This document shows positions 38-35,537 of a DNA stretch of 59,814 nt, in pieces (positions within the stretch are counted from its first letter, which is position 1; every line of letters begins with the position of its first letter). Both the position numbers and the translations under genes were made by a program. The notes under the pieces were generated by a model. The model ran no database searches, had not been told where the DNA came from, and worked only from the letters and a program-made list of their open reading frames with translations. Origin of the DNA: Candidatus Altiarchaeota archaeon (GTDB lineage: Archaea; Altiarchaeota; Altiarchaeia; IMC4; SCGC-AAA252-I15); assembly GCA_043804895.1 (NCBI GenBank), contig JAZDIN010000003.1, positions 1-59,814 of the forward strand. The letters run 5' to 3'.

Positions 38-2932
38 GTGAGTATGGCTTCTAAAAAGAGGAGAATACAGTCAGAGGAGGCTTCAATCGACATACCCCTC
101 GGGTGGCTGGGCGACCTCATCAACGAACCCCTATTCCTATCCTCATTCTTCTGCCTGGCAATCGCTGTGGCAAAGACCCTTGCTAGGGGCACTCAAGTAA
201 GCTTCCTATATGATGTCGCGCCATTCGCCCTCTTCGCCCTTTTCATTTGGTCATCATACACGTTATACACTCGACCTAATCTGAGGAAAAACATTTGGAC
301 CTACGGGATGCCTGCCCTCATCCTCCTCACCGCCCTGTTCTCATACTACTCCAACAACTACGGCTTCCCCATGAACGAGGACTACAGCTACTTCAGCATA
401 ATGGCTGCCATATTCTGCATGTTCTACGCGCTCTCGTACTACAAGATCATCGACGCTGAGTCCTCAATGCTTCTGGCATTGTTCGCCTCAGCGCTTCTCA
501 TACACCTCGTCCCAGCCAACGCCGACATACTCTCCAACCTAGACTCCTACTGGCATTACAAGTGGATGCAGGTCTTCTACAACGACGGAATCCAGCCTGA
601 ATTCGACCCGCTCACATACCCCATGTACGGAGGCCTCGCACACCTCAACAACCCCTCTTACGCAAGCTCCCTAAATGTCCCCACGTTCGGGCTGGATCAG
701 AAGAACACTCCCATGCTGATGCAAATGACCTACGCCTCACTAGCCCTAACCTTGAAGCCGCTAGGCATCAGCCTCTATGACGTTGCGATGCTCTTCCCAG
801 GCATTCTCGGGGCGTTCAGCGTGGTCTTGATGTACCTCCTGGTGAAGGAGATGTTCTCTGACATGCGGCCTCACAACAACATAGCGGCGTTCGCCGCAGC
901 GTTCATGTTCATGCTCAGCCCAGCCTTGGCGATGAACTCCACAGCCACAAACTGCGAGGACGACTCGTTCGGGATGTTCCTTATGGTCGGCGTCCTGTTC
1001 CTCTTCTTCGCCTCATACCACCGCAAGAGCTTCAAGTACTCCGTCTACTGCGGCGTCGCATTGCTGATGCTCAGGCTCGGCTGGGGCGGAGGCCAGTACG
1101 CGGTGATGACGTTAGGCATATTCGGAACCTTGTACGCCATAGTACGGTTCCTGCGCAACACGAACGCTATGGAACACCTGCCTTACATAATAATCCCCTT
1201 CATGTTCTACCAGCTTTCAGCGTTCATAGTCCACGAGACAGGCGGCATGCCAATATACGTTCCGATGGCCCCGCTCGAACTCTACCCACTAATGTCCACT
1301 GTCGGCCTGTCCCTCACCCTCGAATTCCTGAGGGTGCGGTCGAAGGGCATGCAGTTCGTCAACGACGGCACAGTGGAGGGTCAGGTAGTGGACCTGATAG
1401 AGCGCAACATCATGGTGTTAGGTGCTATCGCCATACTCCTCGGGGCAGCGAGCCTGGTATTCTACAAGACCCCCTCACAGTGGATTGACTTCACTGTACG
1501 AACCGTGCTATCCCCTGAGGTAAAGAGCATAGTCCACCAGACGGTCGCTGAACAGAATCCCATGGCCACATCAGTCGACGAATTCATCTCAGAAGGCTAC
1601 AACCGCTACGGCATCGCACTACTATTCGGGCTCTTGATGATCCCAGTGATGCTGTACCTCATATACAGGCATGGGAGCGTCGGAGCCCTGTTCCTTCTCA
1701 CATGGAGCATCCCAATGATGTGGGGGGCCTACAACAAGAGCGCATGGATATTCGCCTCAAGCGCCTCAGTGACTGCATTGGGGGCGACGATAGGCCTGTT
1801 CTCCGCAGCCAGGAAGTCGGAGTTGGATGGATTCAGGGTCGTCGGGACCATACTGGTGCTCTGCATACCCCTCCTATACGTTCCCATGATCGGCTCGGCG
1901 ATGTACCAGAAGTTCGTAGGCTACGTGGTGATGCACATGGGCCCCACAAGCGACATATACTACTGGACTCCAGCCTTGGAATGGCACAGGGACCACACAA
2001 AACAAGGAGACGCCATCATAACCTGGTGGGACTATGGCCACTGGCTCACCGCAGTATCCCACCGTCCCGTACTCATCGACAACCTCCAGGCTGACTACCT
2101 TGAGATACAGGACGTCGCCCGCTTCTTTGTGAACAAGACATCCGAAGAGGATGCGTTCAAGACCGTGGAAGCCTACAACCAGGCATACAAGAAATACAAC
2201 CCCGAATGGGGCCTCAACTACGCCATGGTAGACTGGACGATGATAGGCAAGGGAAGCGCCCTACACTACATCGCCACAGGCGACATAGCGAACGTCACAC
2301 CAGGCTCATGGAAGAACTACGTGCAATGCGGGTTCCTCCCAGACCAAAGCCAGCTTGAGGAGAAGCTCACAGTCGAAAAGGACGGAAGCTTCTCCAAGAA
2401 CATGAGAATCGCATTCGGATGCCAGAACCAGTTATTCATCCTATTCGACATCTCAGGCGGGCAGCTTAAGGCAGCTAACGTCGTAACAGGATACGGTAAC
2501 ATCATCCCCTGGAGCACATGGTCCGCAGCCAATGACGCCTCCCTCCTCGGAGTCCAACCGCTAATCAGCTCACCAGACGATAAGGTTCCTGGGATACTAC
2601 AGTGCGCGATAAACTGGCGGAAGCTGCCGGCAGGCAGCATATGCAGGCTACCCCAGTTCACGACCCTAGTGTACGTGCCACAGGAGTTCAACGACTTCAT
2701 GTTGACTCGACTGTACCTCGGCAAATACCTGCAGGAGTACAAGGACCGCGGATTCTACAACAGGGAGGTAGTCCCGCTGAAACACTTCCGCGAGGTCCCG
2801 GACATCAACGGCGACGGAGTAGAAGACGGCGAATTCAGCTGGGGATTCGTCAGAACATACGAGATAAACTACGAAGGATTCCCAACAACGGACGCAGTAC
2901 TCACGGAACAGCCGGAAAACACTACAACCTAA
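38..2932 (+). CDS. aglB: Archaeal oligosaccharyltransferase AglB (STT3 family)
   Basis: 964-aa ORF. The N-terminal two thirds is a multi-pass membrane domain, followed by the STT3/AglB signature WWDYGHW (ITWWDYGHWLT) and a soluble C-terminal domain. GTG at 38, first ATG at 44. Confidence 0.9.
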   Translation: MSMASKKRRIQSEEASIDIPLGWLGDLINEPLFLSSFFCLAIAVAKTLARGTQVSFLYDVAPFALFALFIWSSYTLYTRPNLRKNIWTYGMPALILLTALFSYYSNNYGFPMNEDYSYFSIMAAIFCMFYALSYYKIIDAESSMLLALFASALLIHLVPANADILSNLDSYWHYKWMQVFYNDGIQPEFDPLTYPMYGGLAHLNNPSYASSLNVPTFGLDQKNTPMLMQMTYASLALTLKPLGISLYDVAMLFPGILGAFSVVLMYLLVKEMFSDMRPHNNIAAFAAAFMFMLSPALAMNSTATNCEDDSFGMFLMVGVLFLFFASYHRKSFKYSVYCGVALLMLRLGWGGGQYAVMTLGIFGTLYAIVRFLRNTNAMEHLPYIIIPFMFYQLSAFIVHETGGMPIYVPMAPLELYPLMSTVGLSLTLEFLRVRSKGMQFVNDGTVEGQVVDLIERNIMVLGAIAILLGAASLVFYKTPSQWIDFTVRTVLSPEVKSIVHQTVAEQNPMATSVDEFISEGYNRYGIALLFGLLMIPVMLYLIYRHGSVGALFLLTWSIPMMWGAYNKSAWIFASSASVTALGATIGLFSAARKSELDGFRVVGTILVLCIPLLYVPMIGSAMYQKFVGYVVMHMGPTSDIYYWTPALEWHRDHTKQGDAIITWWDYGHWLTAVSHRPVLIDNLQADYLEIQDVARFFVNKTSEEDAFKTVEAYNQAYKKYNPEWGLNYAMVDWTMIGKGSALHYIATGDIANVTPGSWKNYVQCGFLPDQSQLEEKLTVEKDGSFSKNMRIAFGCQNQLFILFDISGGQLKAANVVTGYGNIIPWSTWSAANDASLLGVQPLISSPDDKVPGILQCAINWRKLPAGSICRLPQFTTLVYVPQEFNDFMLTRLYLGKYLQEYKDRGFYNREVVPLKHFREVPDINGDGVEDGEFSWGFVRTYEINYEGFPTTDAVLTEQPENTTT

Positions 2933-3243
2933 GGGATTCCCGGGCAGATAGTGTCCCCAGATATCGCCATGACCAGAGCCCTCGAAGCCGCGACTATTAT
3001 CAACCCGATGAGTGAGTTTATCGCTATACTCTTACCCTGCTTCCGCCCCCCAGGGTCGTCTGCGCTGAACGCGTACTTCGCCCCCCCATAGACGAACATC
3101 AAAGTAGCTAAAGCAGTCGCCAGCTCCAAGAGGTCTGGGACTAGGCTGCATATCACTGACGCGATTATCGGGCCGGGTGAGGCTGATGCTGATTGCGTCA
3201 GCCACGCTAGACTCACTCCTGCGGTGATGCGTTTCCTTCTCAT
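2929..3243 (-). CDS. Small secreted two-helix membrane protein, VirB2/TrbC-like mini-pilin paralog 5
   Basis: 104 aa. Signal-like N-terminus, Cys (SVICSL), hydrophobic helix, loop motif YGGAKYAFSADDPGGRKQGK, second helix, C-terminal Cys (DTICPGIP). Its stop codon overlaps the aglB stop (2929-2932). Its start overlaps the upstream paralog by 4 nt. Confidence 0.65.
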   Translation of the reverse strand: MRRKRITAGVSLAWLTQSASASPGPIIASVICSLVPDLLELATALATLMFVYGGAKYAFSADDPGGRKQGKSIAINSLIGLIIVAASRALVMAISGDTICPGIP

Positions 3244-3563
3244 GTTGCACCTACCCCAACCATGTCAATCACATCCCCAGCGACCCGTATTATAATCAAC
3301 GCCATGATAGCGGCGATGCACATCCCCACAGCCTGTTTCCTCGCCGCGGGGTCGTCTGCGGTGTACACGTATTTGGCTGCTCCGTAGACGAACATGATGA
3401 CTGCGATGGAGTTGCCCATGATAGTGAACGAAGTCGTCAGCGAATTAACGAAGGCTATCATCTTAACCAAGTAGGTGGCTGCTGAGGTGGCGGATGAGAT
3501 AAAGTAAATCACCGCCACTGCACTCAACGTCGCCCGTCCCATTAAGAGTTTCCCCTGTTCCAT
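3240..3563 (-). CDS. VirB2/TrbC-like mini-pilin paralog 4 (Cys-less variant)
   Basis: 107 aa. Same helix-loop-helix layout with YGAAKYVYTADDPAARKQA. It is the only paralog lacking the N-proximal and C-terminal Cys pair. Confidence 0.6.
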   Translation of the reverse strand: MEQGKLLMGRATLSAVAVIYFISSATSAATYLVKMIAFVNSLTTSFTIMGNSIAVIMFVYGAAKYVYTADDPAARKQAVGMCIAAIMALIIIRVAGDVIDMVGVGAT

Positions 3564-3564
3564 G

Positions 3565-3900
3565 TCAAGTCGACAAACCCGTTATCATAGGGCACAATTC
3601 CACGTCACCGACTGCGGATATTATCGCAGCCAGGAGGCCCATTATTATCCCCCCGATTATGGCGTGTATGAATATGTCCCGGCCTTGTTTCATCCCAGCC
3701 GGGTCCTCTGAGCTGTAAATGTATTTGGCTGCCCCGTATACTAACATTATCACAATCAACGACGGGCCGATAGCCCTAAGCGCATCCCAGAGGCCTCCGA
3801 TGATGCTGCAAGGGACGGCTTCTATTGGACTTCCCGCGAAGGCTGACGCGGCCAATAAGGCTAACAAAATCCCGGAATAAAACGCAGCTTTTGCTTTCAT
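3565..3900 (-). CDS. VirB2/TrbC-like mini-pilin paralog 3
   Basis: 111 aa. Signal peptide (LLAASAFAGSP), AVPCSII, YGAAKYIYSSEDPAGMKQGR, second helix, ELCPM near the C-terminus. 1-nt gap to the next gene. Confidence 0.65.
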   Translation of the reverse strand: MKAKAAFYSGILLALLAASAFAGSPIEAVPCSIIGGLWDALRAIGPSLIVIMLVYGAAKYIYSSEDPAGMKQGRDIFIHAIIGGIIMGLLAAIISAVGDVELCPMITGLST

Positions 3901-4262
3901 GATGCTGGTGGTCCTCCGCCTGAGGCGCCTTCCACGACCCCCTCACAGAGGTCCCACCAACCCTGCTTCACCACATTATACATCCCCCACACGAGGATGA
4001 AGATAATCCCACCCATAACGGCCGCAATACAGATGCTCTTAGCAGTCTTACGGCCGCCGGGATCCTCAGCAGACCAAATATATTTGACTGCCCCATAAGT
4101 GAACATCAACACCATGAGTGTGGGGGCAACGACATTCAAGGCTCCGTAAACCTGGTTTATGATAGAGCATGGGACATCCTTGAAGGGCGAAGTAGCCGCA
4201 ACCAACACTGGCCAAAACAGCACAGCAACTAAGACCAACCATGGTATCTTCAATTTTGCCAT
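3897..4262 (-). CDS. VirB2/TrbC-like mini-pilin paralog 2
   Basis: 121 aa. Signal peptide, DVPCSII, YGAVKYIWSAEDPGGRKTAK, second helix, WDLCEG, Gly/Pro-rich tail. 4-nt overlap with the downstream paralog. Confidence 0.65.
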   Translation of the reverse strand: MAKLKIPWLVLVAVLFWPVLVAATSPFKDVPCSIINQVYGALNVVAPTLMVLMFTYGAVKYIWSAEDPGGRKTAKSICIAAVMGGIIFILVWGMYNVVKQGWWDLCEGVVEGASGGGPPAS

Positions 4263-4268
4263 TAAGTC

Positions 4269-4577
4269 CTATGGACACGTAGTCACAGTTACTAAGGATG
4301 TGATAGTCGTAGCAACTATTAGTATAACCCCGCCTATTACTGCGTGTATGCACGTGTCTTTTCCTGCTTTCCTCCCCCCTGGATCGTCTGAAGCGAAAAC
4401 ATACTTAACTCCACCATAAGTGAACATTATGACCATCAATGTACCTCCTATCGTTCCCAATGCACTCATAATAGGTTTCATTACATCACACACTGTCGTC
4501 TCTATGTCTGTTGCCGTCGCATACGACGCTAGTAACAGAACGTTTAACGCCGCTAGAATCCAAGTTTTTTTGTCCAT
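4269..4577 (-). CDS. VirB2/TrbC-like mini-pilin paralog 1 (first gene of the array)
   Basis: The ORF is open to 4607, but the ATG at 4577 (MDKKTWILAAL...) has GGAGGT 9 nt upstream. TTVCDV, YGGVKYVFASDDPGGRKAGK, and it ends ...VTTCP. Confidence 0.65.
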   Translation of the reverse strand: MDKKTWILAALNVLLLASYATATDIETTVCDVMKPIMSALGTIGGTLMVIMFTYGGVKYVFASDDPGGRKAGKDTCIHAVIGGVILIVATTITSLVTVTTCP

Positions 4578-4722
4578 ACTCAATTTACCTCCGGGAAAAA
4601 TATACACCGATAATTAATTCGCAACAGACGGTTAAAAACACGCGAAAACCGCCTACCGGCATCTGGGGGATGCTGACGACATCCGGAAAATCCGCCCGCC
4701 GAACACCTGACAGGTGAACACA

Positions 4723-6018
4723 TTAAATCTCCAACTCCAACAGCCACTCATGAGCCGACTTAACAGTTATCCTCTTACCCCCCTCTTTTATCCTCATACT
4801 CTCATTGGCGGTGACTATGAGACCCTCCCTCAGCTTGTGCTCGTCCATGGCCTCAAGCAGTCCCCTAACCTCCCGCTTCCGTGTTTCCTCGTCTTTGAGG
4901 GTGAGTGAGACTTGGATGGCATGGGTTATCTTGAGCCTTTCCTTTATGAGGAAGTCGCACTCGTACCTGCTTTTGTGGTAGAATATGTCCTCATAACGTC
5001 TTTTGAGGGCCAGGTAGACTAGGTTCTCCAGGAGACGCCCCCTATCCTCTAAGAAGCGGAAGGACACTGAGCTCGCCAACCCCGTGTCTATGCAGTACGT
5101 CTTCTTCTGGTTGGCTAACTGTTTCCTGACTGACTTGTCGTATTTGTTTATCGTGTGTATAAGGTAGGAGTTTTCCGCGTAGGCTATGTATTCGCCCACC
5201 GTCTGCGCTGCTATGCCCAGCGTCTTAGCCATGTTCGCAAAGGAGAACGGTTTACCCACATTCGACAGGATAAAGTACAGTAGGTCGAAGACCTCCCGGT
5301 TATTCCTTATCTTGTGCGGGTAGACTATGTCCTTCAGGTATATCGTCTGGAAGTAGTTTTTCAGTATCTCATGCTTCAATCCCTTCCCCTTCTCCAAGAC
5401 CACCCTCGGAAATCCCCCATATTTGAGGTACTCCTCGAAGAGGATGTTCTTCTCCGCCAAGGTTGGTTTTTTTATCTCCTTGAACTCTAAGAACTCCTTG
5501 AAGGATAACGGGAATATCACGGTGTGGAAGTATCTGCCTGAAAGCCTTGTGCTTCCCTCCCCCTGCAGCAAAGTGGAGGTCGACCCTGTCAGGACTAGTT
5601 TGACCTTCTTTTGGGTGTCGTATACGGTTTTGACCGTCTGAACCCAGTAGTCGTTGTTCTGCACCTCGTCTATGAACACGTAAAGCCGTTTGCAGTCGCC
5701 TGCTTTTGTCAGATAATGCTCTATCAGCCCTCCAAGAAAGGACGGGTCCTTCGAGCGGCTCTGAAGCAAGGGGTCGTCAAGGTTGGCAAAGACTATGGCT
5801 TCCGGGGGTGTTTTCCCGTCCAAAAGGGTCTTTATGAGTTGGCTCAGCAATGTGGACTTGCCAGTCCTTCTCGCACCCAAAAGAAGCAGGACCTCGGGTG
5901 TCCCCATGAACTTCTCCAGTTGGGGGTAGCTCTCTAGCCTGTTTATGCCGCACTCGAATTCCTTGCCAAACCACCAGGGGTTTTGCTTCTCCAATGCCTC
6001 CTTCAGGTTGTCTTCCAT
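4723..6018 (-). CDS. AAA+ ATPase, DUF4143-type (COG1373-like)
   Basis: 431 aa. Walker A GARRTGKST, Walker B LYVFIDEVQ. The C-terminal part resembles the DUF4143 nuclease-like module (YECDFLI). Confidence 0.8.
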   Translation of the reverse strand: MEDNLKEALEKQNPWWFGKEFECGINRLESYPQLEKFMGTPEVLLLLGARRTGKSTLLSQLIKTLLDGKTPPEAIVFANLDDPLLQSRSKDPSFLGGLIEHYLTKAGDCKRLYVFIDEVQNNDYWVQTVKTVYDTQKKVKLVLTGSTSTLLQGEGSTRLSGRYFHTVIFPLSFKEFLEFKEIKKPTLAEKNILFEEYLKYGGFPRVVLEKGKGLKHEILKNYFQTIYLKDIVYPHKIRNNREVFDLLYFILSNVGKPFSFANMAKTLGIAAQTVGEYIAYAENSYLIHTINKYDKSVRKQLANQKKTYCIDTGLASSVSFRFLEDRGRLLENLVYLALKRRYEDIFYHKSRYECDFLIKERLKITHAIQVSLTLKDEETRKREVRGLLEAMDEHKLREGLIVTANESMRIKEGGKRITVKSAHEWLLELEI

Positions 6019-6124
6019 GGTAGATAATACGAAAGACTAGTATAAAAATCATGAAATATAATCTACGATTTATGATGAAATCATAAGATATGTTCTACGA
6101 TTATTATGTGCTGTGGAGACGAGG

Positions 6125-6143
6125 ATATTCAATAATTGAATAT
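6125..6143. promoter_or_regulatory. Perfect 19-bp palindrome ATATTCAAT-A-ATTGAATAT (operator-like)
   Basis: Read directly. It lies 16 nt upstream of the ATG of the kinase gene fragment, in the AT-rich intergenic region that also holds TTATGAT-GAA-ATCATAA (6070-6086) and the direct repeats TCTACGATT (6062, 6094). Confidence 0.3.
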
Positions 6144-6158
6144 TCAGTAGGTGAATAC

Positions 6159-6239
6159 ATGACGCCACCAAAAATCCTTTCAGTCACCGGGGTCCCCTGC
6201 AGCGGGAAGGCCCTTAAAATGGTGTTTTCGTCTATGTAA
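6159..6239 (+). pseudogene. Truncated 5-prime copy of the AK6/Fap7-type kinase gene (26 codons, P-loop only)
   Basis: Translates MTPPKILSVTGVPCSGKALKMVFSSM*. Nt 6177-6209 match 7306-7338 (start of the intact kinase gene) at 29 of 33 positions, encoding LSVTGVPCSGK in both. Confidence 0.45.
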
Positions 6240-6285
6240 ATTTTAAAAACATTTGTTTTTATTTAAAAACACTCATTATTATATC

Positions 6286-6858
6286 ATGCGGGGAAAAAAC
6301 GTGAGTATCTGGGATGTAGGCCCCATGAAGCTGCTAACATTCTTCATGGACAACCCCTACGGCGAAGTCTACTTGAGGGAGGCTGCAAAGAAGATTCACC
6401 TAAGCCCTTTTGCGGTGAAAAAATACGCTGACATCCTTCTGAAGGAGAGCCTCATAGTCGAGGAGAGGAGGGCTAATCTCAGAAATTTTAAAGCAAACAT
6501 GGGCAGCCTATTCTTTAGGCATCTGAAGGTAGCCCGTAACTTGGACCTTATCACAAAGTCTAACCTTTTGGGTTATCTGGTCAAACATACCCCAAACGTT
6601 TCCTCAATAGTCTTGTTCGGCTCAATGGCGCGCGGAGAAGACGATGGAAGAAGCGACCTAGACCTAGTGGTTATAGGAGCTAAAAAACAAATAAACCTAT
6701 CAGAGTACGAGGAAAAAGTGGGCCGGGAAATAAACGTGCACGTGTTCAGCTGGGCTGACTGGCAGAAGAAGGCTGCCGAAGACGCCCCCTTCTACAACGA
6801 GGTCATAGCTTCTGGCATCCCTCTCCAGGGGGAGATTCCGCAGGTACGATGGAAATAA
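6286..6858 (+). CDS. Minimal nucleotidyltransferase (MNT) with N-terminal winged-helix domain; HEPN/MNT pair
   Basis: Motif LFGSMARGEDDGRSDLDLVV (GS-x9-D-x-D). The ORF is open from TTG 6253. The ATG at 6286 is about 20-28 nt downstream of a TTTTATTTAAAAA TATA-like run. Confidence 0.8.
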   Translation: MRGKNVSIWDVGPMKLLTFFMDNPYGEVYLREAAKKIHLSPFAVKKYADILLKESLIVEERRANLRNFKANMGSLFFRHLKVARNLDLITKSNLLGYLVKHTPNVSSIVLFGSMARGEDDGRSDLDLVVIGAKKQINLSEYEEKVGREINVHVFSWADWQKKAAEDAPFYNEVIASGIPLQGEIPQVRWK

Positions 6859-7280
6859 GGACAATAGAGGACTGCATGGGGGAGAGGCTCCTAAGGAAAA
6901 TACTTCCAGACAAGGAGAAAAGCCAAAAATCAGTGGAGATAGCAAAGAAAAGATTAGCCGAGACGGAAAAAGCCATAAAACTCGAAATATACCCCTACGC
7001 GATACTGGAAGCTTACAACGCCATGTTCCACGCTGCAAGAGCTATCCTCTACCGCGACGGTATACAGGAAAAAAGCCACTACGCCGTCTACATATACCTC
7101 AAAGAAAAATACGCGGACAGAATACCGTCAACCACCCTCAACCTGCTCAACATACACCGGACTGAGAGACACGAGACACTCTATGGACTAGAATACGAGC
7201 CACACCGGACGGAAGCGCAAACCGCGCTAGAGGACGCGAAAACATTCCTACACCAAATAGAAAAAATATTAAAAGAATAG
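6849..7280 (+). CDS. HEPN domain protein (partner of the MNT)
   Basis: 143 aa, all-helical, HRTERHETLYG resembling the HEPN R-x-n-H...Y motif. Overlaps the MNT gene by 10 nt. Confidence 0.7.
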   Translation: MEIRTIEDCMGERLLRKILPDKEKSQKSVEIAKKRLAETEKAIKLEIYPYAILEAYNAMFHAARAILYRDGIQEKSHYAVYIYLKEKYADRIPSTTLNLLNIHRTERHETLYGLEYEPHRTEAQTALEDAKTFLHQIEKILKE

Positions 7281-7290: not shown

Positions 7291-7830
7291 ATGGTTTCCA
7301 AGGTTCTCTCAGTCACTGGAGTCCCGTGCAGCGGGAAGACGACTTTATGCTCTACTTTAGGCGTTGAACTTCAGATTCCAGTCTTGGATTTGACCCGGCT
7401 GGTTGATGAGGAGAAGCTTTACAGCGGCATTGACGAGGCCAGGGATACGAAGGTCGTGGACGTTGAAAAGCTGAGGAAGGAAGTCAAGAAGCTGATTAAG
7501 GATGACACGATACTTGATGGCCTCCTAAGCCACCACATGGATGTCACTCATATTCTGGTGTTACGTTGTGACCCTAAGGTTTTAGCCGAGAGGATGGCTG
7601 CTAGGGGGTATGGCAGAAAAAAGATCATGGAGAATCTGGAGGCTGAGTACGGGGGGGTTATACTCTACGAGAGTCTCAAAAAGTGCGGGAATGTGCTGGA
7701 GGTTGACAACATCAACGGCGCGGACTTGGAGGAGATAAAAAAATGGTTCAGGGAAGGGGGTAGGAAGGTAGTCGAGAAAGACTGGACCAATGAATTCGAG
7801 AGCGTGCTTAGAGGCCGTTCTCCCATTTGA
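7291..7830 (+). CDS. Putative adenylate/nucleotide kinase, AK6/Fap7 family
   Basis: 179 aa. P-loop VTGVPCSGKTT at the N-terminus. Size and layout match archaeal COG1936 kinases. Confidence 0.6.
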   Translation: MVSKVLSVTGVPCSGKTTLCSTLGVELQIPVLDLTRLVDEEKLYSGIDEARDTKVVDVEKLRKEVKKLIKDDTILDGLLSHHMDVTHILVLRCDPKVLAERMAARGYGRKKIMENLEAEYGGVILYESLKKCGNVLEVDNINGADLEEIKKWFREGGRKVVEKDWTNEFESVLRGRSPI

Positions 7831-10950: not shown

Positions 10951-12174
10951 ATGGATAAGACAGTCAAACGACACATCCTCCTGCTAATATCAATCACCAT
11001 CCTCGCGAAACTATTGCTCATCGCCTTCCTTGCTGCCATACCAGTCGACTACGTCGGAGGCCTGTTAGGCATACCACCAGACGACCTCTACCACAACCTC
11101 CGCGTGATGAACATCACAGAACGCCCGCTAAAGGAGAAACTAGGGTACACGTTTGACTCGCAATGGTACGTGCAGATGTCCCAAAAAGGTTACCCGCCTA
11201 AAGGGCCAGGATACGGGAACTTCATCCCCAACCCATTTTACTTCGATAAATCCAATTGTGTTTATTGGTGGCCCTTCCTCTACCCACTGCTAATACGAAT
11301 ATTCAGCCTGTTCATGGACCCTATAATCTCAGGACTCCTTTTGACAAACGCGGCCTCCCTCCTGGCAGTGGCCTTGTTCTATCTCGTGTCCGTAAGGTAT
11401 GTGAACCCGTCCGACGCATTCAAGGCATCAGTCCTCCTGATGATGTACCCCTTCAACCTCGCAGCATGGACGTGCTCATACACTGAGCCGATATTCCTGG
11501 TGTTCGCCCTCCTCGCGTGGATTACCCTCCACAAAGACAAAATCGTCTGGTCCGGGTTTTTCATGATGCTGGCTTCATTGATCAGATTCCCCGGGCTTAT
11601 GTTATTCCCTATCTTAACTGTCATCTACTTCAGGGGTAACATGAGGGGGGTTGAAAAGTGGACACTACTCAAGCGAGTGATAATACTCAACCTTTTCGCG
11701 CTCCCAATACTCTACTGGATGCTCATTCAGGTGCCTGCTAGCACCGGAGTTTCGGTACACCTGTTGAGAACAATCTGCGGCAGATATACTAAGTATTCCC
11801 CCCTCCCTTACGCATCAGATGGCGGAATCGTTGGCTTGTTAGCAACCTACATAAACCTGTTAATCTCCTCCAGTACAGTCATGAGCACTTTCGGAGTCGC
11901 GTATTTTTTTGCGTATTTTGCTCTCCTGGCTACATACTCTTTGAGAAACCTTGACAAAAGGCTGATGTTGTACTCACTCGGCTTCATGCTATTCCACCTC
12001 CTAGTCATAGGTGCTGCGGACTCACTCGGCAGGTATTTGGGCGTTATTTGGCCTTTGTTCATATACTACGGCAGGAGGCTTGATTCAATGGACGTGTTTT
12101 TCTTTTCTGCCGTGTTCATGGGGTTGGGTTTGGTTTTATTGGAGTTGCACACTAACATGATACTGGTGTTCTGA
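10951..12174 (+). CDS. Polytopic membrane protein, putative GT-C glycosyltransferase (PIG-V/DUF2029-like)
   Basis: 407 aa, about 10 hydrophobic helices, located inside the glycosylation cluster. No soluble domain. Confidence 0.45.
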   Translation: MDKTVKRHILLLISITILAKLLLIAFLAAIPVDYVGGLLGIPPDDLYHNLRVMNITERPLKEKLGYTFDSQWYVQMSQKGYPPKGPGYGNFIPNPFYFDKSNCVYWWPFLYPLLIRIFSLFMDPIISGLLLTNAASLLAVALFYLVSVRYVNPSDAFKASVLLMMYPFNLAAWTCSYTEPIFLVFALLAWITLHKDKIVWSGFFMMLASLIRFPGLMLFPILTVIYFRGNMRGVEKWTLLKRVIILNLFALPILYWMLIQVPASTGVSVHLLRTICGRYTKYSPLPYASDGGIVGLLATYINLLISSSTVMSTFGVAYFFAYFALLATYSLRNLDKRLMLYSLGFMLFHLLVIGAADSLGRYLGVIWPLFIYYGRRLDSMDVFFFSAVFMGLGLVLLELHTNMILVF

Positions 12175-16387: not shown

Positions 16388-16921
16388 ATGGGCCTCTTTG
16401 GTTCTATTACAGGGCTTTTCAGGAAGGAGCCTGAGAATCTGCTTCTGGAGCTTGCGGCTGAGCTTAAGCTCACATACTACCCCCCTGTGGATGATAAGCC
16501 TGCGTTCGCGACCGGCTTATACAGTGGCAGGGGCGTCACACTCGACTGCATGAACGAGAAGGGCTACCACGACATCTGGCATCCCCACTCCCGCGTGGTG
16601 GTCTTGGTCGACAGGAACGTAAAGGACACCTATATCGTCTCATACCAGGGACGATTCTACAGCCGCAAACTAGGCGAAGTTAAAGTAGACGACAAAAAAT
16701 TCAACGACAAGTACGCGCTCCTCTCCAGTGCACCGCACAAGGCTGAGAAGATATTCACAGACGAGGTCCTATCATGGATACTCAGGCTGGAAATGCCGCT
16801 GATACTCTCCGAGGGCCATGTGCTGTTCCACCAGGACAAGTTTATCGATGACAAGGAGCGGGTGAAACACATCATCGACGCGCTTGTCTACATAGCCACT
16901 ATGGCTGAGCGGACAAGGTAA
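16388..16921 (+). CDS. Hypothetical protein
   Basis: 177-aa ORF (TTG 16385 / ATG 16388). Its 3-prime end overlaps the convergent giant gene by 23 nt. Confidence 0.55.
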   Translation: MGLFGSITGLFRKEPENLLLELAAELKLTYYPPVDDKPAFATGLYSGRGVTLDCMNEKGYHDIWHPHSRVVVLVDRNVKDTYIVSYQGRFYSRKLGEVKVDDKKFNDKYALLSSAPHKAEKIFTDEVLSWILRLEMPLILSEGHVLFHQDKFIDDKERVKHIIDALVYIATMAERTR

Positions 16922-19900
16922 CTCTCCCCCTAGTCTCATCCCACACTGGTATTATCTTCGTCAGGTTGTACTCCCTCAGCATCAGCTCCTCGCCTGTTAT
17001 GAGCTTTTCAGCTTTCACCTTTTTGACAGCAACCAGTAGTTCGCCCAACTCCACTGTAAGGCCGTGTTTGTGCGCTAGTTTCTCAGCCTTCGCTTTTTCG
17101 GCATCAGTCAGCTTCACGCTCCTCAGGTGCTCTGTCATCTCCTGCAGCCTCTCGTACGCGTCCTCCGTCACTAAGAGCGGTGCGTATTCATTCAGAATGT
17201 CAGCCGAGTATAACGCCCTGGCGACCTCCTCAGTCGCTGCTGCGCCTTTCCTCTTCCTAAGCCACCGTCTTATCAAAAGAGCCAGGAGGAGCGGTATCAG
17301 AAGCGATGTCGATGCAACTGCCACGACAGCGGGCGTCGGCTTCGGCAGCGCAGCCCATATCGCAGTCGTCGGAGCGTACATCCTCCTCTTCGCGTCCACG
17401 GACCACAATCCTTCGACGCTGCTTTCAGCTTCCGCGCTCCCTTTCTCATCTGTCATCGATTTTATCTTCTCTCCGCCCGGCACGTTGTATGTGATGTAAG
17501 ACTGTAAGCCCATCCCGTTGCTGTCAACTACCTTGAATGTGAAGTTGCTCCCCACCACAGCGTACGCCGGCACGTCTACTATATACAGACTGTCCTGAGT
17601 CAAGGGCCTTAATACTCCGTCTATGAGGACGCACGGCGGACACGGTCCCCCGCAGTCGATGGCTTCCTCCCCGTCATCCATCGCTCCATTGTAGCATGAG
17701 TCGCACGGTGGGCACGGTCCCCCGCAGTCTACTTCGATTTCGCCTTCGTCCAGGACCCCGTTTATGCAAAGCACAGTGAACTCACCGGGTATTGTCGTGG
17801 TCGTTGCCAGGCCTATCAGTGGACAGCAGCAGTATCCTCTCTCAGGGTTTGTTGTGTAACAGTATACGTCCCCCCTGTCGTCGTGAATCCACCTCCACTC
17901 ACTCTCCTCGCTCCCGCATGTAATGTCTGAAGAGCATGCGGTTTCCTCGCTCAGGTAGTACTTCAGGCACACATCAGGGCAGGCTTCAGCAACTGCCGGT
18001 ATCGTAGTGGTGGTCTCGTTGGCGAGCGTCGTGGACGTCGAAGTTGTCGTAGTCACGGACCCGTTGATTACGCAGATGTCAGCTATCCCGTCCAAGTCGA
18101 AGTCAGCCTTCCCGCAGTCCCAACCTTCACCACTGCTCGTGAAGTCATTGCATATGAAGAAGAATCTTCTCGTGGAGGCGGCCTCATCCTCATCCTCATC
18201 CGCAGCCTCCCCGGAAAGGTAGTACACGCCGTTTGAAAGGCCTGCCGTGGACATTCTTCCATCGCAGGTTATCCTATTCCCTGATGATGCGCCCGGAACA
18301 GTGGAGGAGCTTATTTGGGAACCGGACGAGTCGGTGAGCTTGACGTTGCACCTCTCGAAATTCCCTGACAAAGCTGTTACGAACGACATGCTGTAGCCCG
18401 CCTCCTCACCTGTCCTGTAGAACGGCCGCTCGATTGTGTAGTCCGTCTCCTTTGGCATGGCGTTGACGTTCACCAGCCTTAGGCTGCTTGGGTCGCCGAC
18501 GTTTCCTGAATCGTCCTCAACAGACGCGCTCACCGGCAGGGTCTCATCATCCAAAACGCCGAAGAAGCGGAGTATGCACTCGCTGGAGGTCACATAGGTG
18601 AGGCCGCTTATGTTGAAGTAGCATTGGCTTACTCCTGTGACGTCCGGTGCCGGGACAGCCCTTATGTCGAAGAAGCTGTTGTATGGGAGGTTGACGTTGT
18701 CTCCGACGCTCGGCTCTATCTCAAGGTGGTCTACAAGCGGGTTGGACACTCCATATACTATGGAGGTTACCCTAGTCTCCCCCACCTCCGGCTCCCCGTT
18801 TTTTAGGTTAGTCACAGTCACAGGATAGCTCCTGTTCTGCGGGGAAGACGCGCCGTCGCAGGTCAAGGTCACATCAAAGCCCCTCAACGGTTTCCCAGGG
18901 CCTATGAACTGCGGCTTATGCTGTATCTGCCCCACATTCTGCCCCGACACCCACCTTAGCATCGGGTTCCCGTTTAGCGTGCAGGAGCTTACGTTGTACG
19001 GGAAGTAGGAGCTGTTATCTGTGGCGTCTCCGAGGGTGATTATGACAGCCTCATAGGTTGCGGAGCTTCTGAACCTTATCACATAGGAATTGTTTACGTG
19101 GAGGCGCTCAAGGTGGGCGTACTGTACCGTCGTTGGGTCTATGTACTTGAGCGGTGTCATATACGGCACCTCAACCGGGTTCACACCACCCCATGTTTTT
19201 GCACTGCATCCTCCGATACCCCAGCAGTCCGGGTCAGTGCAATCCACCACCGCATCCGCGTCGTTGTCCACGTTGTCAGTGCACAGCGAAGCACTCGACT
19301 CCTTGAGGGCGCATACGGCTTCGCCTGGTCCTATCCTGCCGTAGCAGTTGGGGTCAGCGCAGTCCATCTTCCCGTTCCCGTCGTTGTCTACTCCGTCGTC
19401 GCATGAGACTTCAACTTCCTCGCACTTCTGGCTTCCCATGCCGCCGAATTCTCCTATGCACGCCTGGTCGTTGCAGTCGACCTCACTCCCGCCTGTGACA
19501 TAATCGTAGTCATCATCTAACCCATTCAAGCAGCTGTCCCACCTGTAGCTTTCAAAATCCGGGCAAGGCCCGCAGAACCCGAACTTCTGGAAGCAGTCCT
19601 CGTCAGTGCAGTCAGTCCCCCCAGGCCATCCTTCGCCTGCGTCCGCGTCATCGTCTATGGTGTTGTCGCAGAGGTTGGTGTTGGTCGATGGGTCATATTC
19701 CCTGGCAGTGCACTCCTGGCTCGGATTGGCTGGGTTCACCATCCCAAAGCAGTCCGGGTCAGCGCAGTCGATGTTAGCCCCAGGCCCAAAGTATTGTTGT
19801 TTAGGGTTGTCCAGGTCGTTGTCCATGTTGTCGAAGCACTGTTCAGGCGCGGGTGTGCCGCCCGCAGTGTACGCTTCATTGTATGGGCAGACATATCCTC

Positions 19901-21599
19901 CGCCCCCCCTCACGTCCCTGCAGTCATAGTCCCTGCAGTCTATGCTGCCGTCATAGTCGTTGTCTTCCCCGTCCCCACACCATGTGGGGTCGTTGTTCTC
20001 ATACGCCGGACACGGCTGCGTCGCAGACCTGCCGCCCTTACCCCAACACTGCGTAGCATCCCAGCAATCCGTCCCGTCCTCGGCGTCGTTGTTGAATCCG
20101 TCAGAGCAGTGGCCCGGATAGTAGCCGCCGCATCCCTCGCAACCGTACTCGCACAAGTCGCGTGGGTTAAAGAAGTTGCCAGGCTTCCCGTTGCAGTTTA
20201 AGTCAGCGCAGTCAATCTTCCCGTCAACCTCATTGTCGAAGCAGTCATTGCACGTTTCCTCAGCACCGTACTCGCAGTACGCATTCTGCCTGCCACAGTT
20301 AAGGCCTCCTATCTCGCCGTCGCATCCGATGTCCCTGCAGTCTGTCAGGTAGTTGAGGTCGTTGTCCAACCCGTCCGAGCACGGCTTTTCTATGATAGGT
20401 GGCATATCCTCATTCTCCTCCCAGTTGGAGGGGGCGTTGGCGCTCACATAGAATGGTATCCCGTCGATGAGCAGGTCCTGGCCGTACTGTACCATGTAAA
20501 GGCTGAACGTGTTCCAGCCTGGAGTGACATCACCTGGAGTCAGGTACATGACAAAGTCGATATTGCCGTAGTATCCGTTCACATCCTCGACTGCGTAGCT
20601 CGTCTGCGTCGTAGTCTCCTTAGGCGGCTTATGCGAGCCTGGGGCTGCGTAACTCCCCTGGGTTGTGAAGCTGTTCAGCTTTGTAATAGCGAAGGAAATC
20701 GGCTTTCCGGTGTCGTACCTGCCTCCGTTGAACCTCACCTTCAACGTGCCTCCAGGCTTCACATACCTAGTGTAATAGTATGTGACTGGATGCCCCCCGA
20801 AATTCTTCGTCTCCCAACACAAGCCGTTCCTGCATGAGCCTGTGAACGGGTCACCTGCGAACTTGTGACTTGCGCAACTGTACGTTACCCCCTGACAGTA
20901 TATGTCGTTGCAGTCCACGTCGCCGTTGCCTTCCATACCGTCCAATCCGTCGTGGCATTCCCCCTCAACGTACATGCCCCTGCTCATAGCAACCGAGAAC
21001 GCGACGTCGCCAGTGTAATCGCAGTATAAGGTGTTGTTGAAGTACCTCTTCGGTATCCCGAGGAAACACCTTGAAGCAAGGTAAGCATCATCGTCTATAC
21101 TGTCAAACCTACTCCAAATGTTCCCATGAACGTATACGAGCCTGTTCAAAGGGCTGCCATAAGGAGACGCGCTTGAGAAAACCACCCTACCGCTCCTATC
21201 CCATAGGCTGCAGTTCTCCACCTGCCATGGTATATGCTTGTCCACAGGGTCTGACTGCTTCAGCGTGTACGACAACCTCTCAAACGTCCTGTTCCTGGAG
21301 GTGGAAAAAGTCTTCTCCACATTCATCCTCGTGAAATCAGAACGCCTCACCACGCACTGCAAGCGGCTCCCAGAGGAGGCAGTGAAATTCAGGAACGTCA
21401 AGTTGAAAGTGAACCTGTGCGTCCCAGGTAGGCCGCTCACCTCCGGCTCAAAGACGCCCTCAGGATATATTATCTTATTCCAGGCTCCGGAGGTTATATT
21501 CACACCCACGACAGTAACACCCTGGCCAGAGGCGCACCCAGCCTCGAAAGCCACCAATAAGAAAAATGCGAGGAATATGCGCATATATCTGCATAACAT
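16899..21599 (-). CDS. Giant type-I membrane surface protein with ten Cys/Asp-rich (putative Ca-binding) repeats and two CGGPCPPC modules
   Basis: 1566 aa. Signal peptide (alternative start M6 at 21584). Many N-x-S/T sequons. There are ten C-x-D-x-x-D-N-D-x-D-x(2-12)-D-C-x-D-x-x-C repeats. One is at aa 215-236 and nine are at aa 407-795 (about nt 19215-20381). Thr-rich linkers. Two C-x-N-G-x-x-D-x-G-E-x-x-[IV]-D-CGGPCPPC modules (nt 17631-17768). One TM helix (about nt 17271-17321). 123-aa cytoplasmic tail. Confidence 0.85.
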   Translation of the reverse strand: MLCRYMRIFLAFFLLVAFEAGCASGQGVTVVGVNITSGAWNKIIYPEGVFEPEVSGLPGTHRFTFNLTFLNFTASSGSRLQCVVRRSDFTRMNVEKTFSTSRNRTFERLSYTLKQSDPVDKHIPWQVENCSLWDRSGRVVFSSASPYGSPLNRLVYVHGNIWSRFDSIDDDAYLASRCFLGIPKRYFNNTLYCDYTGDVAFSVAMSRGMYVEGECHDGLDGMEGNGDVDCNDIYCQGVTYSCASHKFAGDPFTGSCRNGLCWETKNFGGHPVTYYYTRYVKPGGTLKVRFNGGRYDTGKPISFAITKLNSFTTQGSYAAPGSHKPPKETTTQTSYAVEDVNGYYGNIDFVMYLTPGDVTPGWNTFSLYMVQYGQDLLIDGIPFYVSANAPSNWEENEDMPPIIEKPCSDGLDNDLNYLTDCRDIGCDGEIGGLNCGRQNAYCEYGAEETCNDCFDNEVDGKIDCADLNCNGKPGNFFNPRDLCEYGCEGCGGYYPGHCSDGFNNDAEDGTDCWDATQCWGKGGRSATQPCPAYENNDPTWCGDGEDNDYDGSIDCRDYDCRDVRGGGGYVCPYNEAYTAGGTPAPEQCFDNMDNDLDNPKQQYFGPGANIDCADPDCFGMVNPANPSQECTAREYDPSTNTNLCDNTIDDDADAGEGWPGGTDCTDEDCFQKFGFCGPCPDFESYRWDSCLNGLDDDYDYVTGGSEVDCNDQACIGEFGGMGSQKCEEVEVSCDDGVDNDGNGKMDCADPNCYGRIGPGEAVCALKESSASLCTDNVDNDADAVVDCTDPDCWGIGGCSAKTWGGVNPVEVPYMTPLKYIDPTTVQYAHLERLHVNNSYVIRFRSSATYEAVIITLGDATDNSSYFPYNVSSCTLNGNPMLRWVSGQNVGQIQHKPQFIGPGKPLRGFDVTLTCDGASSPQNRSYPVTVTNLKNGEPEVGETRVTSIVYGVSNPLVDHLEIEPSVGDNVNLPYNSFFDIRAVPAPDVTGVSQCYFNISGLTYVTSSECILRFFGVLDDETLPVSASVEDDSGNVGDPSSLRLVNVNAMPKETDYTIERPFYRTGEEAGYSMSFVTALSGNFERCNVKLTDSSGSQISSSTVPGASSGNRITCDGRMSTAGLSNGVYYLSGEAADEDEDEAASTRRFFFICNDFTSSGEGWDCGKADFDLDGIADICVINGSVTTTTSTSTTLANETTTTIPAVAEACPDVCLKYYLSEETACSSDITCGSEESEWRWIHDDRGDVYCYTTNPERGYCCCPLIGLATTTTIPGEFTVLCINGVLDEGEIEVDCGGPCPPCDSCYNGAMDDGEEAIDCGGPCPPCVLIDGVLRPLTQDSLYIVDVPAYAVVGSNFTFKVVDSNGMGLQSYITYNVPGGEKIKSMTDEKGSAEAESSVEGLWSVDAKRRMYAPTTAIWAALPKPTPAVVAVASTSLLIPLLLALLIRRWLRKRKGAAATEEVARALYSADILNEYAPLLVTEDAYERLQEMTEHLRSVKLTDAEKAKAEKLAHKHGLTVELGELLVAVKKVKAEKLITGEELMLREYNLTKIIPVWDETRGRVTLSAQP

Positions 21600-31165: not shown

Positions 31166-31618
31166 ATGCGTTTTCCGCATATCCTGGTCGCGGTCATCGC
31201 GGTGGTGTTGGTGTGCGGGTGCGAGTTCGATTTTGAGAACTCCCAGCTTGCGAACACGGTCGAAGCAGCCATAAAGTCGAAGGACCCATCGAAGTGCAAA
31301 ACACTCACAGACCCGATGGACAAAGACAACTGCTACCAGCTCGTCTCAGTCGGACTCAAAGACGCCGCATCCTGCAAGAGCATAAGGAACAAGACTATCA
31401 CTGACACATGCTACAAGGGCGTCGCAATAGTCAACAAAGACTACTCCCCATGCGACAAAATCAAAGACCAGAAGGAGAAGGCCATGTGCATGGCCCAGGT
31501 GGCAACAGGCCAGGCAGGCGACGCAGTCAACGCCATAGGCAACGCCACAGAGGAGCAGATACAGGCAGCCCAACCCTACATCGACAAAATAAAGGAACTG
31601 ATAGGGAAATACACGTAG
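31166..31618 (+). CDS. Small secreted lipobox protein with three C-x(11-13)-C repeats
   Basis: Signal/lipobox VLVCGCEF. Repeats SKCKTLTDPMDKDNCY / ASCKSIRNKTITDTCY / SPCDKIKDQKEKAMCM. Confidence 0.65.
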   Translation: MRFPHILVAVIAVVLVCGCEFDFENSQLANTVEAAIKSKDPSKCKTLTDPMDKDNCYQLVSVGLKDAASCKSIRNKTITDTCYKGVAIVNKDYSPCDKIKDQKEKAMCMAQVATGQAGDAVNAIGNATEEQIQAAQPYIDKIKELIGKYT

Positions 31619-33505: not shown

Positions 33506-34264
33506 ATGAGGAAAACAGTCTCAATCATAGTCCTGGCGGTCCTCCTACCCGGCCTAGTTGATGCGATGTCGACCGCATTTTACACTCGCATATGCAGCGA
33601 AACCGACAGCGGATTAGACTACCCGATGGCAGGCACCACAAAGGACGCCACCGGCAACTATTCTGACCTGTGCATGGACTCCGTGAAACTGGTGGAATGG
33701 TACTGCGACAACGGCAGGGCCACGTTCGCCATGCACGCATGCCCTCACGGATGTGTCTGGGGGAGGTGCGTGAGCTCCAACCCGAACATGATGTCAGGGC
33801 CCTACGAGTGCGATGACAGTGACGGAGGCGTCGTGCTATCAGTTAAGGGCTTCCTGGACGACGTAAGGGTGGACAAGTGCATAACCACGACGCGTCTGAG
33901 GGAATGGTACTGCTGGGACAACACGCCGAAGTCAACGACCCGCTTCTGCGGCGGCAGGTGCGAAGACGGCGCATGTAAGACGACAACCACAACAACTACC
34001 TCAACGACCTTACCAACCCTCCAGGCGTTTACTACTCCCACGACTGCATCAACGACGTCCACCACGACCCTGCAGGCCTACTGCATCGAATCTGACTGGG
34101 GGAGGGCACCAGAAGACAAAGGTGTCACAAAAATTGGGAACACCGTGCGAACCGACGATTGCGTAGGCTACAAGAGAATCCGGGAGTGGTACTGTAGCGA
34201 GAACAGGTTGCGTTTCGCATACTTCAAATGCCCCAACATCTGCTTGGACGGGGCGTGCAAATAA
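33506..34264 (+). CDS. Secreted protein with three copies of a roughly 60-aa six-Cys domain and a Thr-rich linker
   Basis: Signal peptide. Each copy has the pattern C-x-[ED]-[ST]-D-x-G ... [LI]-x-E-W-Y-C ... C-x-x-x-C-x-x-G-x-C. The linker is TTTTTTTSTTLPT...TTSTTT. Confidence 0.75.
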   Translation: MRKTVSIIVLAVLLPGLVDAMSTAFYTRICSETDSGLDYPMAGTTKDATGNYSDLCMDSVKLVEWYCDNGRATFAMHACPHGCVWGRCVSSNPNMMSGPYECDDSDGGVVLSVKGFLDDVRVDKCITTTRLREWYCWDNTPKSTTRFCGGRCEDGACKTTTTTTTSTTLPTLQAFTTPTTASTTSTTTLQAYCIESDWGRAPEDKGVTKIGNTVRTDDCVGYKRIREWYCSENRLRFAYFKCPNICLDGACK

Positions 34265-34275
34265 ACTGGTGAATC

Positions 34276-34806: not shown

Positions 34807-34873
34807 CGGTAAGGAGAGCGTATATATACTCCCCTGACAATAACGTCAAACAAACACTAAACTGAGGTGAAAT

Positions 34874-35497: not shown

Positions 35498-35515
35498 AAG
35501 AAACAGGGACAAAAA

Positions 35516-35537
35516 ACCCGCCCAACATTGGGCGGGT
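35516..35537. terminator. Bidirectional terminator-like hairpin ACCCGCCCA-ACAT-TGGGCGGGT
   Basis: 9-bp perfect stem between convergent genes. Flanked by A6 on the left (T6 for the minus-strand transcript) and a T-rich run on the right. Confidence 0.5.

Follow-up and report, generated by a model that had tools for sequence, protein, structure and literature searches.

A phylum-wide array of VirB2/TrbC-type pilin genes with paired terminal cysteines next to aglB in Altiarchaeota

A 59,814-nt stretch of Altiarchaeota DNA (the window; all positions count from its first letter) carries on its minus strand an array of five co-oriented genes (2929-4577, based on the listing of open reading frames, ORFs), which encode paralogs of 102-121 amino acids (aa). 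Based on three family profiles, we assign these genes to the VirB2/TrbC conjugative-pilin superfamily. Four of the five paralogs have one cysteine near each end of the mature protein, and this terminal pair very likely forms a disulfide. The array recurs across the phylum in a fixed genomic position. We lean towards the view that the paralogs are subunits of a heteromeric, disulfide-stapled VirB2-type filament or tube, with an assembly machinery that would be encoded elsewhere or be of an unrecognised kind.

Mating pili, by which genes spread between bacteria, are built from VirB2-type pilins. To our knowledge, archaeal VirB2-type pilins have so far come only from the Ced and Ted DNA-import systems of Crenarchaeota. 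Altiarchaeota are notable for a double membrane and for unusual surface appendages. The array and its upstream region are laid out as follows.

4269..4577, minus strand: pilin paralog 1, promoter-proximal gene of the variable-copy 'xVC' type, most likely 102 aa; Cys30 and Cys101
3897..4262, minus strand: pilin paralog 2, 121 aa; VPCSII close to the start of the mature protein, LCEG close to its end, Gly/Pro-rich C-terminal tail
3565..3900, minus strand: pilin paralog 3, 111 aa; 'VPC' type, ortholog cluster 7
3240..3563, minus strand: pilin paralog 4, 107 aa; ortholog cluster 13, a type that is always second from aglB; 29-36% identical to its siblings, both terminal Cys absent in this genome
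2929..3243, minus strand: pilin paralog 5, 104 aa; nearest aglB, ortholog cluster 12
4578..4722, minus strand: non-coding region upstream of the array, read from the sequence as a predicted AT-rich TATA-like stretch (about 4620-4596) followed by the ribosome-binding site GGAGGT (4592-4587)

In array order the ORFs run from 4607 or 4577 to 4269, 4262 to 3897, 3900 to 3565, 3563 to 3240 and 3243 to 2929. Successive ORFs are 6 nt apart, overlap by 4 nt, are 1 nt apart and again overlap by 4 nt, and this packing of five paralogous minus-strand ORFs is as the initial annotation of the sequence described it. That annotation also had the array end on the stop codon of aglB, and indeed the TAG of gene 5 (complement of 2929-2931) overlaps the aglB TAA (2930-2932, plus strand). 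Its layout of the ORFs stands, with the start of gene 1 as the part to be revised: the gene most likely begins at ATG 4577 (102 aa) and not at GTG 4607 (112 aa), because GGAGGT at 4592-4587 lies 9 nt 5' of the ATG and the GTG falls within the AT-rich promoter-like stretch. An entry in the public protein collection (P0001) is the 102-aa form.

The five proteins can be aligned over their whole length, with pairwise core identities of 29-43%. Each begins with a K/R-rich N-terminus and a hydrophobic stretch of 12-18 residues, which lead up to an A-x-A-type cleavage site (predicted as ATA/T, VAA/T, AFA/G, SAA/T and ASA/S, the slash marking the cut). These signal peptides were assigned by rule from their n-h-c architecture, which makes their boundary crude. 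The signal is followed in all five by a helix, the loop YG[GA]xKY..[ST]A[DE]DP..[RM]K and a second helix; the residues M, Y, G, K, Y, D, P and K around YGGxKY..SADDPGGRK are invariant. The loop motif noticed at the outset is thus shared by all five, with the minor amendment that gene 4 has T at the position given as [SA]. The terminal Cys motifs (TVCDV with TCP, VPCSII with LCEG, VPCSII with LCP and VICSL with ICPG) and their absence from gene 4 (3240-3563) are exactly as first quoted.

The family first named for these proteins, PF18895 (T4SS_pilin, for type IV secretion system), is also the best family in the Pfam check that we ran. Four of the five genes score above its gathering threshold of 26.6 bits (gene 1, 49.5; gene 2, 33.7; gene 3, 30.7; gene 5, 37.8 bits), and gene 4 is under it with 23.4 bits. 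Gene 1 is also above the threshold of TrbC/VirB2 (PF04956; 37.9 vs 27.9 bits). Pfam E-values across the array range from 4.5e-13 to 6.5e-5. Finally, three of the five genes weakly match the NCBIfam family NF045849 (Mbov_0395 family pilin-like conjugal transfer protein; best E = 5.5e-8, 32.4 against a cut-off of 40). On these three independent family profiles we place the five genes, from their sequences, in the T4SS_pilin branch of the superfamily. The core identity, the Pfam E-values and the recurrence in every related genome found show that the array is not a chance resemblance.

A link to holins or to some other unrelated function had been raised as an alternative; a search of the pilins against PHROGs gave no match, and so no phage or holin link. 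A tblastn search against 72,556 plasmids gave no match either. The homologues P0010, P0020, P0040 and P0112 bear names given automatically by the Joint Genome Institute (JGI), among them 'DNA repair protein MutK', 'PrsW proteinase' and 'ABC-type arginine transport permease'. For members of such a small hydrophobic family, these names seem to be mis-annotations.

Structure prediction gives a helical hairpin. AlphaFold places helices at 25-61 and 66-100 in full-length gene 1 (predicted local distance difference test, pLDDT, 87), and AlphaFold2 with an alignment of 106 sequences places them at 3-39 and 44-73 in the mature protein (pLDDT 90.6). The mature model has a 4-residue turn, the loop DDPGGRK and a 7-residue tail, and the hydropathy profile agrees with a hairpin. 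In a Foldseek search with this model, the top match among 350,542 PDB chains is the CedA1 conjugation pilus of A. pernix (8dfu; TM-score 0.69/0.66, root-mean-square deviation 2.2 Å over 71 columns), a match that is not significant (E = 2.4, probability 0.77) because two-helix hairpins are not distinctive. When the signal peptide is included in the model, generic helical hairpins dominate and 8dfu ranks 27th. A profile search of PDB sequences with the pilin alignment gave no relevant match to solved pilins. The modelled fold is consistent with conjugative-pilin homology.

Since the signal peptide is predicted to be cleaved and the two helices are of membrane length, both ends of the mature protein, and with them both Cys, should lie outside. 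This is the topology proposed at the start, and it follows from rule-based signal assignment and modelled helices. We then surveyed the Cys in 191 non-redundant single-domain homologues. Counted from the loop proline, the N-side Cys occupies position -36 or -32, and its C-side counterpart is in the tail, between +35 and +49; in paralog 5 the N-side Cys is one helical turn nearer the loop (-32 vs -36). The homologues fall into the following states.

Both N-side and C-side Cys: 183 of 191 homologues
Neither terminal Cys: 5 of 191 homologues
N-side Cys absent, two Cys in the C-terminal tail: 3 of 191 homologues
N-side Cys alone: 0 of 191 homologues

The two Cys co-occur with a Fisher p value of 2.8e-8, kinship being ignored. 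Nearly all apparent odd Cys counts were traced to the crude signal-peptide boundary, and variants with extra Cys keep matched N- and C-side numbers (for example, 2/2). The paralog type in second position from aglB has N-side/C-side states of 0/0, 1/1 and 0/2 in different genomes, and therefore Cys changes were repeated and always paired. From this strict co-presence or co-absence we infer, in support of the initial suggestion, that the terminal Cys pair very likely forms a disulfide. Homologues P0006, P0007 and P0008, on a 5.6-kb JGI contig, have a six-Cys N-terminal extension and two tail Cys, an even total of eight.

Column entropy sets the pair apart. The two Cys columns have 0.14 bits amid variable regions of 2.5-3.0 bits (N-tail 2.9, outer helix halves 2.5-3.0, C-tail 2.7), compared to 0.62 bits for the loop and 1.3 bits for the loop-proximal helix halves. 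The terminal Cys are the only conserved residues in an otherwise variable outer half of the hairpin. An invariant basic loop together with a hypervariable exterior is consistent with the conservation pattern of a pilus subunit.

In the mature model the N-side Cys is 33.5 residues before the turn centre and helix 2 ends 31.5 residues after it. The end of helix 2 is thereby level with about residue 10 of helix 1, and it is followed by the flexible 7-residue tail that bears the C-side Cys. With this register and a flexible tail, the two Cys of the model can meet.

The exported proteins of the window contain 4.4% Cys, compared to 1.0% in the cytoplasmic ones, which suggests that extracytoplasmic disulfides are common in this organism. 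Cys-rich exported proteins (3-8% Cys, with about 1% in cytoplasmic proteins) are encoded at 16899-21599 (minus strand) and at 55584-57821, 33506-34264, 31166-31618 and 54080-55579 (plus strand). At the extremes, 76 Cys are found in a protein of 1,566 aa and 50 in one of 745 aa. The 499-aa protein at 54080-55579 has a Peptidase_M23 domain and the other four are without a Pfam match. These exports suggest an extensive disulfide-bonded secretome.

A third, lone Cys is found in helix 2. In gene 1 it is Cys76 (window position 4352), 10 residues past the loop proline in the motif CIHA. About 60% of the homologues have this Cys, among them paralog 4, which is devoid of the terminal pair. It has no partner and would sit near the cytoplasmic or lumen end of the hairpin.

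The terminal disulfide is probably formed within one subunit, pinning both ends of each hairpin, as judged from the Cys patterns. In VirB2-type pili, as in the F- and T-pilus structures, the termini of neighbouring subunits are close together on the outer surface, and N-to-C' pairing across subunits is thus geometrically possible. The pilin homology could then hold while the Cys pair cross-links neighbouring subunits or binds a metal or cofactor at the filament surface. The covariation is blind to whether pairing is intra- or inter-subunit, and the CxxxC and CxC variants resemble metal sites. Nonetheless, polypilins, the tandem fusions described below, keep one Cys per side in each repeat, as for a pair within the hairpin. 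The three homologues devoid of the N-side Cys have two Cys in the same tail, suggesting local pairing, and the model sets the end of helix 2 level with the N-side Cys of the same chain. We consider cross-linking or metal binding unlikely, a judgement made independently of those on the other readings.

Next, we looked at the conservation of the array. A scan with one genome per species gave ten loci, all labelled Candidatus Altiarchaeota or Altiarchaeales, and the named matches of the protein search are likewise all Altiarchaeota. Related loci have 3-9 tandem pilin genes. The array is tail-to-tail with aglB in all 18 related loci having enough flank, which include the ten genome loci, L012, a 39-kb JGI contig and five metagenome contigs; the metagenome contigs are short (1-7 kb) and added aglB adjacency with no further context. 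AglB of the related loci is 42-69% identical to that of the window (tblastn). In L001, L012, L030 and the JGI contig the kept order is HxlR, AAA_18, the pilin array, the convergent aglB and cis-prenyltransferase, within a glycosylation and dolichol gene cluster. One homologue, P0073, is followed by ftsZ and not by aglB. The array is a phylum-wide core-genome locus of Altiarchaeota.

The order of the paralogs is conserved as well. We clustered 53 pilins from 11 genomes and found that one ortholog group supplies the gene nearest aglB in 11/11 genomes and that another single paralog type supplies the second gene, again in 11/11. The third position is usually of the 'VPC' type, with five of the six members of cluster 7 found there. 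Copy number varies only at the promoter-proximal end. Fixed positions of this kind point to distinct, non-interchangeable subunits rather than to recent duplication for antigenic variation, and as far as sequences tell the conserved order favours a defined hetero-assembly.

The paralogs could instead be alternative major pilins that are used singly, for antigenic or host-range variation, as has been proposed for CPR (Candidate Phyla Radiation) arrays (PMC12102498). The varying promoter-proximal copy number, with arrays of 3-9 genes, and the hypervariable outer hairpin halves would suit such a use. We nevertheless find it improbable. The two genes nearest aglB, of one type each in every genome clustered, and the usual 'VPC' gene in third position describe an ancient, fixed and non-redundant set; the overlapping genes are packed into one operon that shows no switching elements, and fused polypilins express many hairpins at once.

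The constant neighbour raises the question of a link to glycosylation. The hairpins could serve AglB or the dolichol pathway as accessory subunits or partners, given the tail-to-tail aglB adjacency in the window and the 18 related loci and the location of the array inside a glycosylation and dolichol gene cluster. We regard this as very improbable. Transcription is convergent and the whole block is syntenic, so that adjacency need not be specific; the polypilin genes and P0073 are away from aglB; variable copy number would be odd for a fixed enzyme complex; and the significant homology points to conjugative pilins. An N-X-S/T sequon is found in none of the five window pilins and in the exposed termini of 6 of the 53 relatives. 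Pilins as AglB substrates were rejected on this scarcity of sequons: with no sequon in the pilins, the aglB adjacency is not a substrate relationship, and it may be a mere part of the conserved syntenic block.

An exhaustive profile search gave 10,531 relatives at E <= 0.001, of which 414 at <= 1e-10. The top matches are proteins of 300-1,775 aa with 2-16 tandem pilin hairpins in one polypeptide, which we call polypilins.

Polypilins: proteins P0121, P0123, P0126, P0132 and P0137; loci L013:10001-15328, L014:40-13180, L033:4175-9247 and L034:3706-9715

Each polypilin has one signal peptide, at its N-terminus, and none further in. In each repeat one Cys is in the preceding linker and one at the start of the first helix, and some polypilins end in Cys-rich or PKD domains. 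NCBI entries MCK4491598.1 and OYT27652.1, which fall in two polypilin clusters, are from Candidatus Altiarchaeales, so that at least two clusters belong to this group. In the two genomes of L013 and L033 the polypilins have a second conserved locus of their own, with the gene order CPSase, OB-fold protein, Cas4-like protein, L39e, polypilins and Mrp antiporter operon. We also asked if polypilin domain order mirrors the gene order of the array and rejected this, as there is no consistent pattern and the domains are 26-56% identical to any array type. Fusions of 2-16 hairpins indicate that the hairpins work side by side. They also leave room for the possibility of a membrane-resident, non-pilus role.

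Taken together, these data lead us to favour the following model for the array. The precursor would be exported by Sec and cut by signal peptidase I, as the n-h-c signal architecture implies. The mature hairpin of about 80 residues would then sit in the membrane with both ends outside and the invariant DDPGGRK loop at the cytoplasmic face, an orientation that builds on the modelled helices. Covariation suggests that a disulfide would join the Cys about 8 residues from the mature N-terminus to the Cys in the last few residues, and this staple would do without an enzyme what head-to-tail cyclisation does in T-pilin and RP4 TrbC. The paralog types may co-assemble into one heteromeric, probably lipid-associated tubular structure of the conjugative-pilus kind, in which the conserved loop would line the inside of the tube and the variable, stapled termini would face outward. 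Machinery for extraction and assembly would be encoded at another place in the genome or belong to an unrecognised type.

Several results weigh against this model. No VirB4, VirB6, VirD4 or relaxase domain was found in the window ORFs of at least 150 aa (59.8 kb), and the same ORFs have no match to AAA_10, DUF87, CagE/TrbE or T4SS-DNA_transf. The Pfam-less ORFs of the window have no Walker A motif; domain and motif searches thus both leave the window without the VirB4-, VirD4- or VirB6-like gene whose absence had been remarked on at first reading. Likewise, in four other genomes (L001, L012, L030 and the JGI contig) the precomputed Pfam annotation of about 10 kb on each side of the array contains no VirB4, VirB6, VirD4 or relaxase domain. 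No VirB4-family ATPase was found over about 10 kb in L013, L014, L032, L033 and L034 either, and the polypilin genes have no T4SS ATPase beside them. Polypilins, whose predicted membrane helices number up to 32, are difficult to square with subunit-by-subunit extraction into a pilus. Neither the Foldseek match to 8dfu, which is without statistical significance at E = 2.4, nor the profile search of PDB sequences, which gave no relative, adds a solved pilin as a certain relative. Finally, an intermolecular disulfide fits the Cys covariation equally well, and the Cys counts of the homologues are not phylogenetically independent; nonetheless, the Cys losses and 0/2 variants occur in several genomes, all inside one paralog type.

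Other parts of a conjugation system were looked for as well. No VirB6/CedA-like channel flanks the arrays; the sole unannotated polytopic ORF of the window (10951-12174) belongs to the glycosylation cluster. A coupling protein, a relaxase or a mobile-element context was not found: the surroundings are housekeeping genes with synteny kept across the phylum. No TraF-like gene was seen in the window.

These absences bear on a rather unlikely reading to which we still give appreciable weight, namely that the hairpins are never extruded as a pilus but pack side by side within the cytoplasmic or outer membrane, where they would make up a fixed hetero-oligomeric bundle, ring or pore, a co-opted fold with no need for a T4SS ATPase. 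No assembly ATPase or channel gene is linked to the pilin genes in about 20 loci, and polypilins with one signal peptide and Cys-rich or PKD ectodomains resemble polytopic membrane proteins bearing surface domains. The contexts are of the housekeeping kind (aglB with dolichol genes, or L39e with the Mrp antiporter), and Ca. Altiarchaeum has two membranes and an outer membrane whose proteins are unknown (PMC4460559). On the other hand, the characterised relatives VirB2, TraA, CedA1 and TedC all form pili, and the invariant basic loop and hypervariable exterior are as in pilus subunits. T4SS genes are moreover often unlinked to pilin arrays: in Patescibacteria, a pilin is near virB4 in only 1,135 of 1,948 assemblies (PMC12102498).

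More tentatively, and with a small chance in our estimate, the pilin hairpin may have been turned into a core, chromosomally fixed building block of the envelope. A defined set of stapled paralogs, fused into polypilins in some lineages, would then assemble into a lipid-lined tube or pore with no canonical T4SS motor involved. This motor-less structure could cross both membranes or reach over to neighbouring cells or symbionts. If true, it would add a new, VirB2-derived class to the surface or envelope structures of archaea.

The window is ordinary chromosome, with uvrB-uvrA-uvrC, threonine synthase, eIF2 subunits, dapB and GGGP synthase. Around the array is the glycosylation and dolichol cluster, with GT2, PMT_2, epimerases and cis-prenyltransferase. 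The nearest genes are listed below.

38..2932, plus strand: aglB, archaeal oligosaccharyltransferase, 964 aa, Pfam STT3 and AglB_core domains; conserved convergent neighbour
4723-6018, minus strand: ATPase with AAA_14 and DUF4143 (Pfam), part of a window-specific insertion
6253-6858 and 6849-7280, plus strand: overlapping nucleotidyltransferase/HEPN toxin-antitoxin-like pair, same insertion
7291..7830, plus strand: AAA_18 (adenylate-kinase/Fap7-like) small P-loop protein (Pfam), elsewhere the conserved divergent promoter-side neighbour

The sole departure of the window from the kept order is the insertion at 4723-7280, which separates AAA_18 from the array and is not at this position in L001, L012 and the JGI contig. 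In L030, a similar NTP_transf_2/HepT pair is found elsewhere in the cluster. AAA_14/DUF4143 was tried as a candidate assembly ATPase and rejected, since L001, L012, L030 and the JGI contig do not have it at the corresponding site.

Further along, the ORF at 10951-12174 (plus strand) encodes 407 aa with about 11 hydrophobic segments. It has no Pfam match in the library used and a weak NCBIfam match to a cell-surface glycopolymer formation protein; its equivalents in L012 and the JGI contig are annotated PF27218 (MJ0043_C). A 2,134-aa ORF at 37471-43875 (minus strand) has no Pfam match or signal peptide and contains 0.2% Cys, with a skewed base composition (AT skew down to -0.36, GC 0.46-0.50). 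Four small Thr-rich (11-17% Thr) predicted lipoproteins or secreted proteins are encoded at 33506-36435; they have no significant family match, and several have a Cys directly after the hydrophobic leader (VSGC, VLGC).

A phylum-wide Altiarchaeota array extends the reach of conjugation-type filaments in archaea and should interest both the T4SS and the archaeal surface-structure fields, with a function that we infer from sequence and models. It brings with it three testable ideas: that the pilin hairpin can be closed by a disulfide in place of enzymatic cyclisation, that VirB2-type filaments can be obligate heteropolymers with fixed subunit types, and that hairpins can be concatenated into giant polypilins. 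If these genomes have no VirB4, the locus points to a new assembly route or to a non-pilus use of the pilin fold. In the literature linking Altiarchaeota or DPANN to VirB2, TrbC, T4SS or pilin, we found no description of this array, and the supplement of the hami paper does not mention VirB2, TrbC, T4SS or pilin. Neither PMC12102498 nor PMC9905601 mentions Altiarchaeota, disulfides, a fixed paralog order, aglB linkage or fused polypilins.

Among known systems, the arrays of Patescibacteria have 2-11 divergent VirB2-like genes, found with PF04956 and PF18895 (PMC12102498). These CPR arrays share with ours the Pfam family and the tandem small, divergent pilin genes (mean identity about 25% there vs 29-43% here). 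They too are chromosomal, without a relaxase and often not beside virB4. Unlike them, the Altiarchaeota array is archaeal, fixed against aglB with a phylum-wide paralog order, and combined with a near-universal terminal Cys pair and fused polypilins; the CPR paper mentions no such cysteines (PMC12102498). VirB4 is documented in most CPR genomes, whereas none was found in the window or the array flanks here. The VirB2 arrays of Bartonella and Anaplasma, read as antigenic variation (summarised in PMC12102498), are likewise tandem diverged duplicates with a variable exterior. They belong to complete linked T4SS loci of pathogens, compared to ancient, position-fixed types with no linked T4SS here. 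The Mbov_0395 family (NF045849) of mycoplasma integrative and conjugative elements is also made of small hairpin proteins of monoderm conjugation systems, but all scores to it are below the cut-off and the present genes are not on a mobile element.

Chromosomal VirB2-like pili of archaea are known as Ced and Ted in Crenarchaeota (CedA1 of Aeropyrum and Sulfolobales, TedC of Pyrobaculum; PMC9905601). With these the array has in common chromosomally 'domesticated' VirB2-like hairpin pilins, and with TedC a cleavable signal peptide, predicted here by rule; 8dfu is the best PDB fold match, though not a significant one. In contrast, the present pilins have no detectable sequence similarity to solved pilins. 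Ced and Ted have one pilin gene beside VirB6-like CedA/TedA and VirB4-like CedB/TedB, whereas five pilins are found here with neither partner nearby; disulfides are absent from the text of PMC9905601.

The T-pilin (Agrobacterium VirB2) and RP4 TrbC belong to the same superfamily and have covalently joined termini, the closed hairpin that we propose here (Eisenbrandt et al. 1999, cited in PMC2653234). In T-pilin and TrbC the closure is a peptide bond, for which a dedicated peptidase (TraF) or an unknown cyclase is responsible, whereas the link proposed here is a disulfide of side chains located slightly inward of each end, with no cyclase implied. We therefore propose the Cys pair as a functional analogue of cyclisation and not as evidence of membership among the cyclic pilins.

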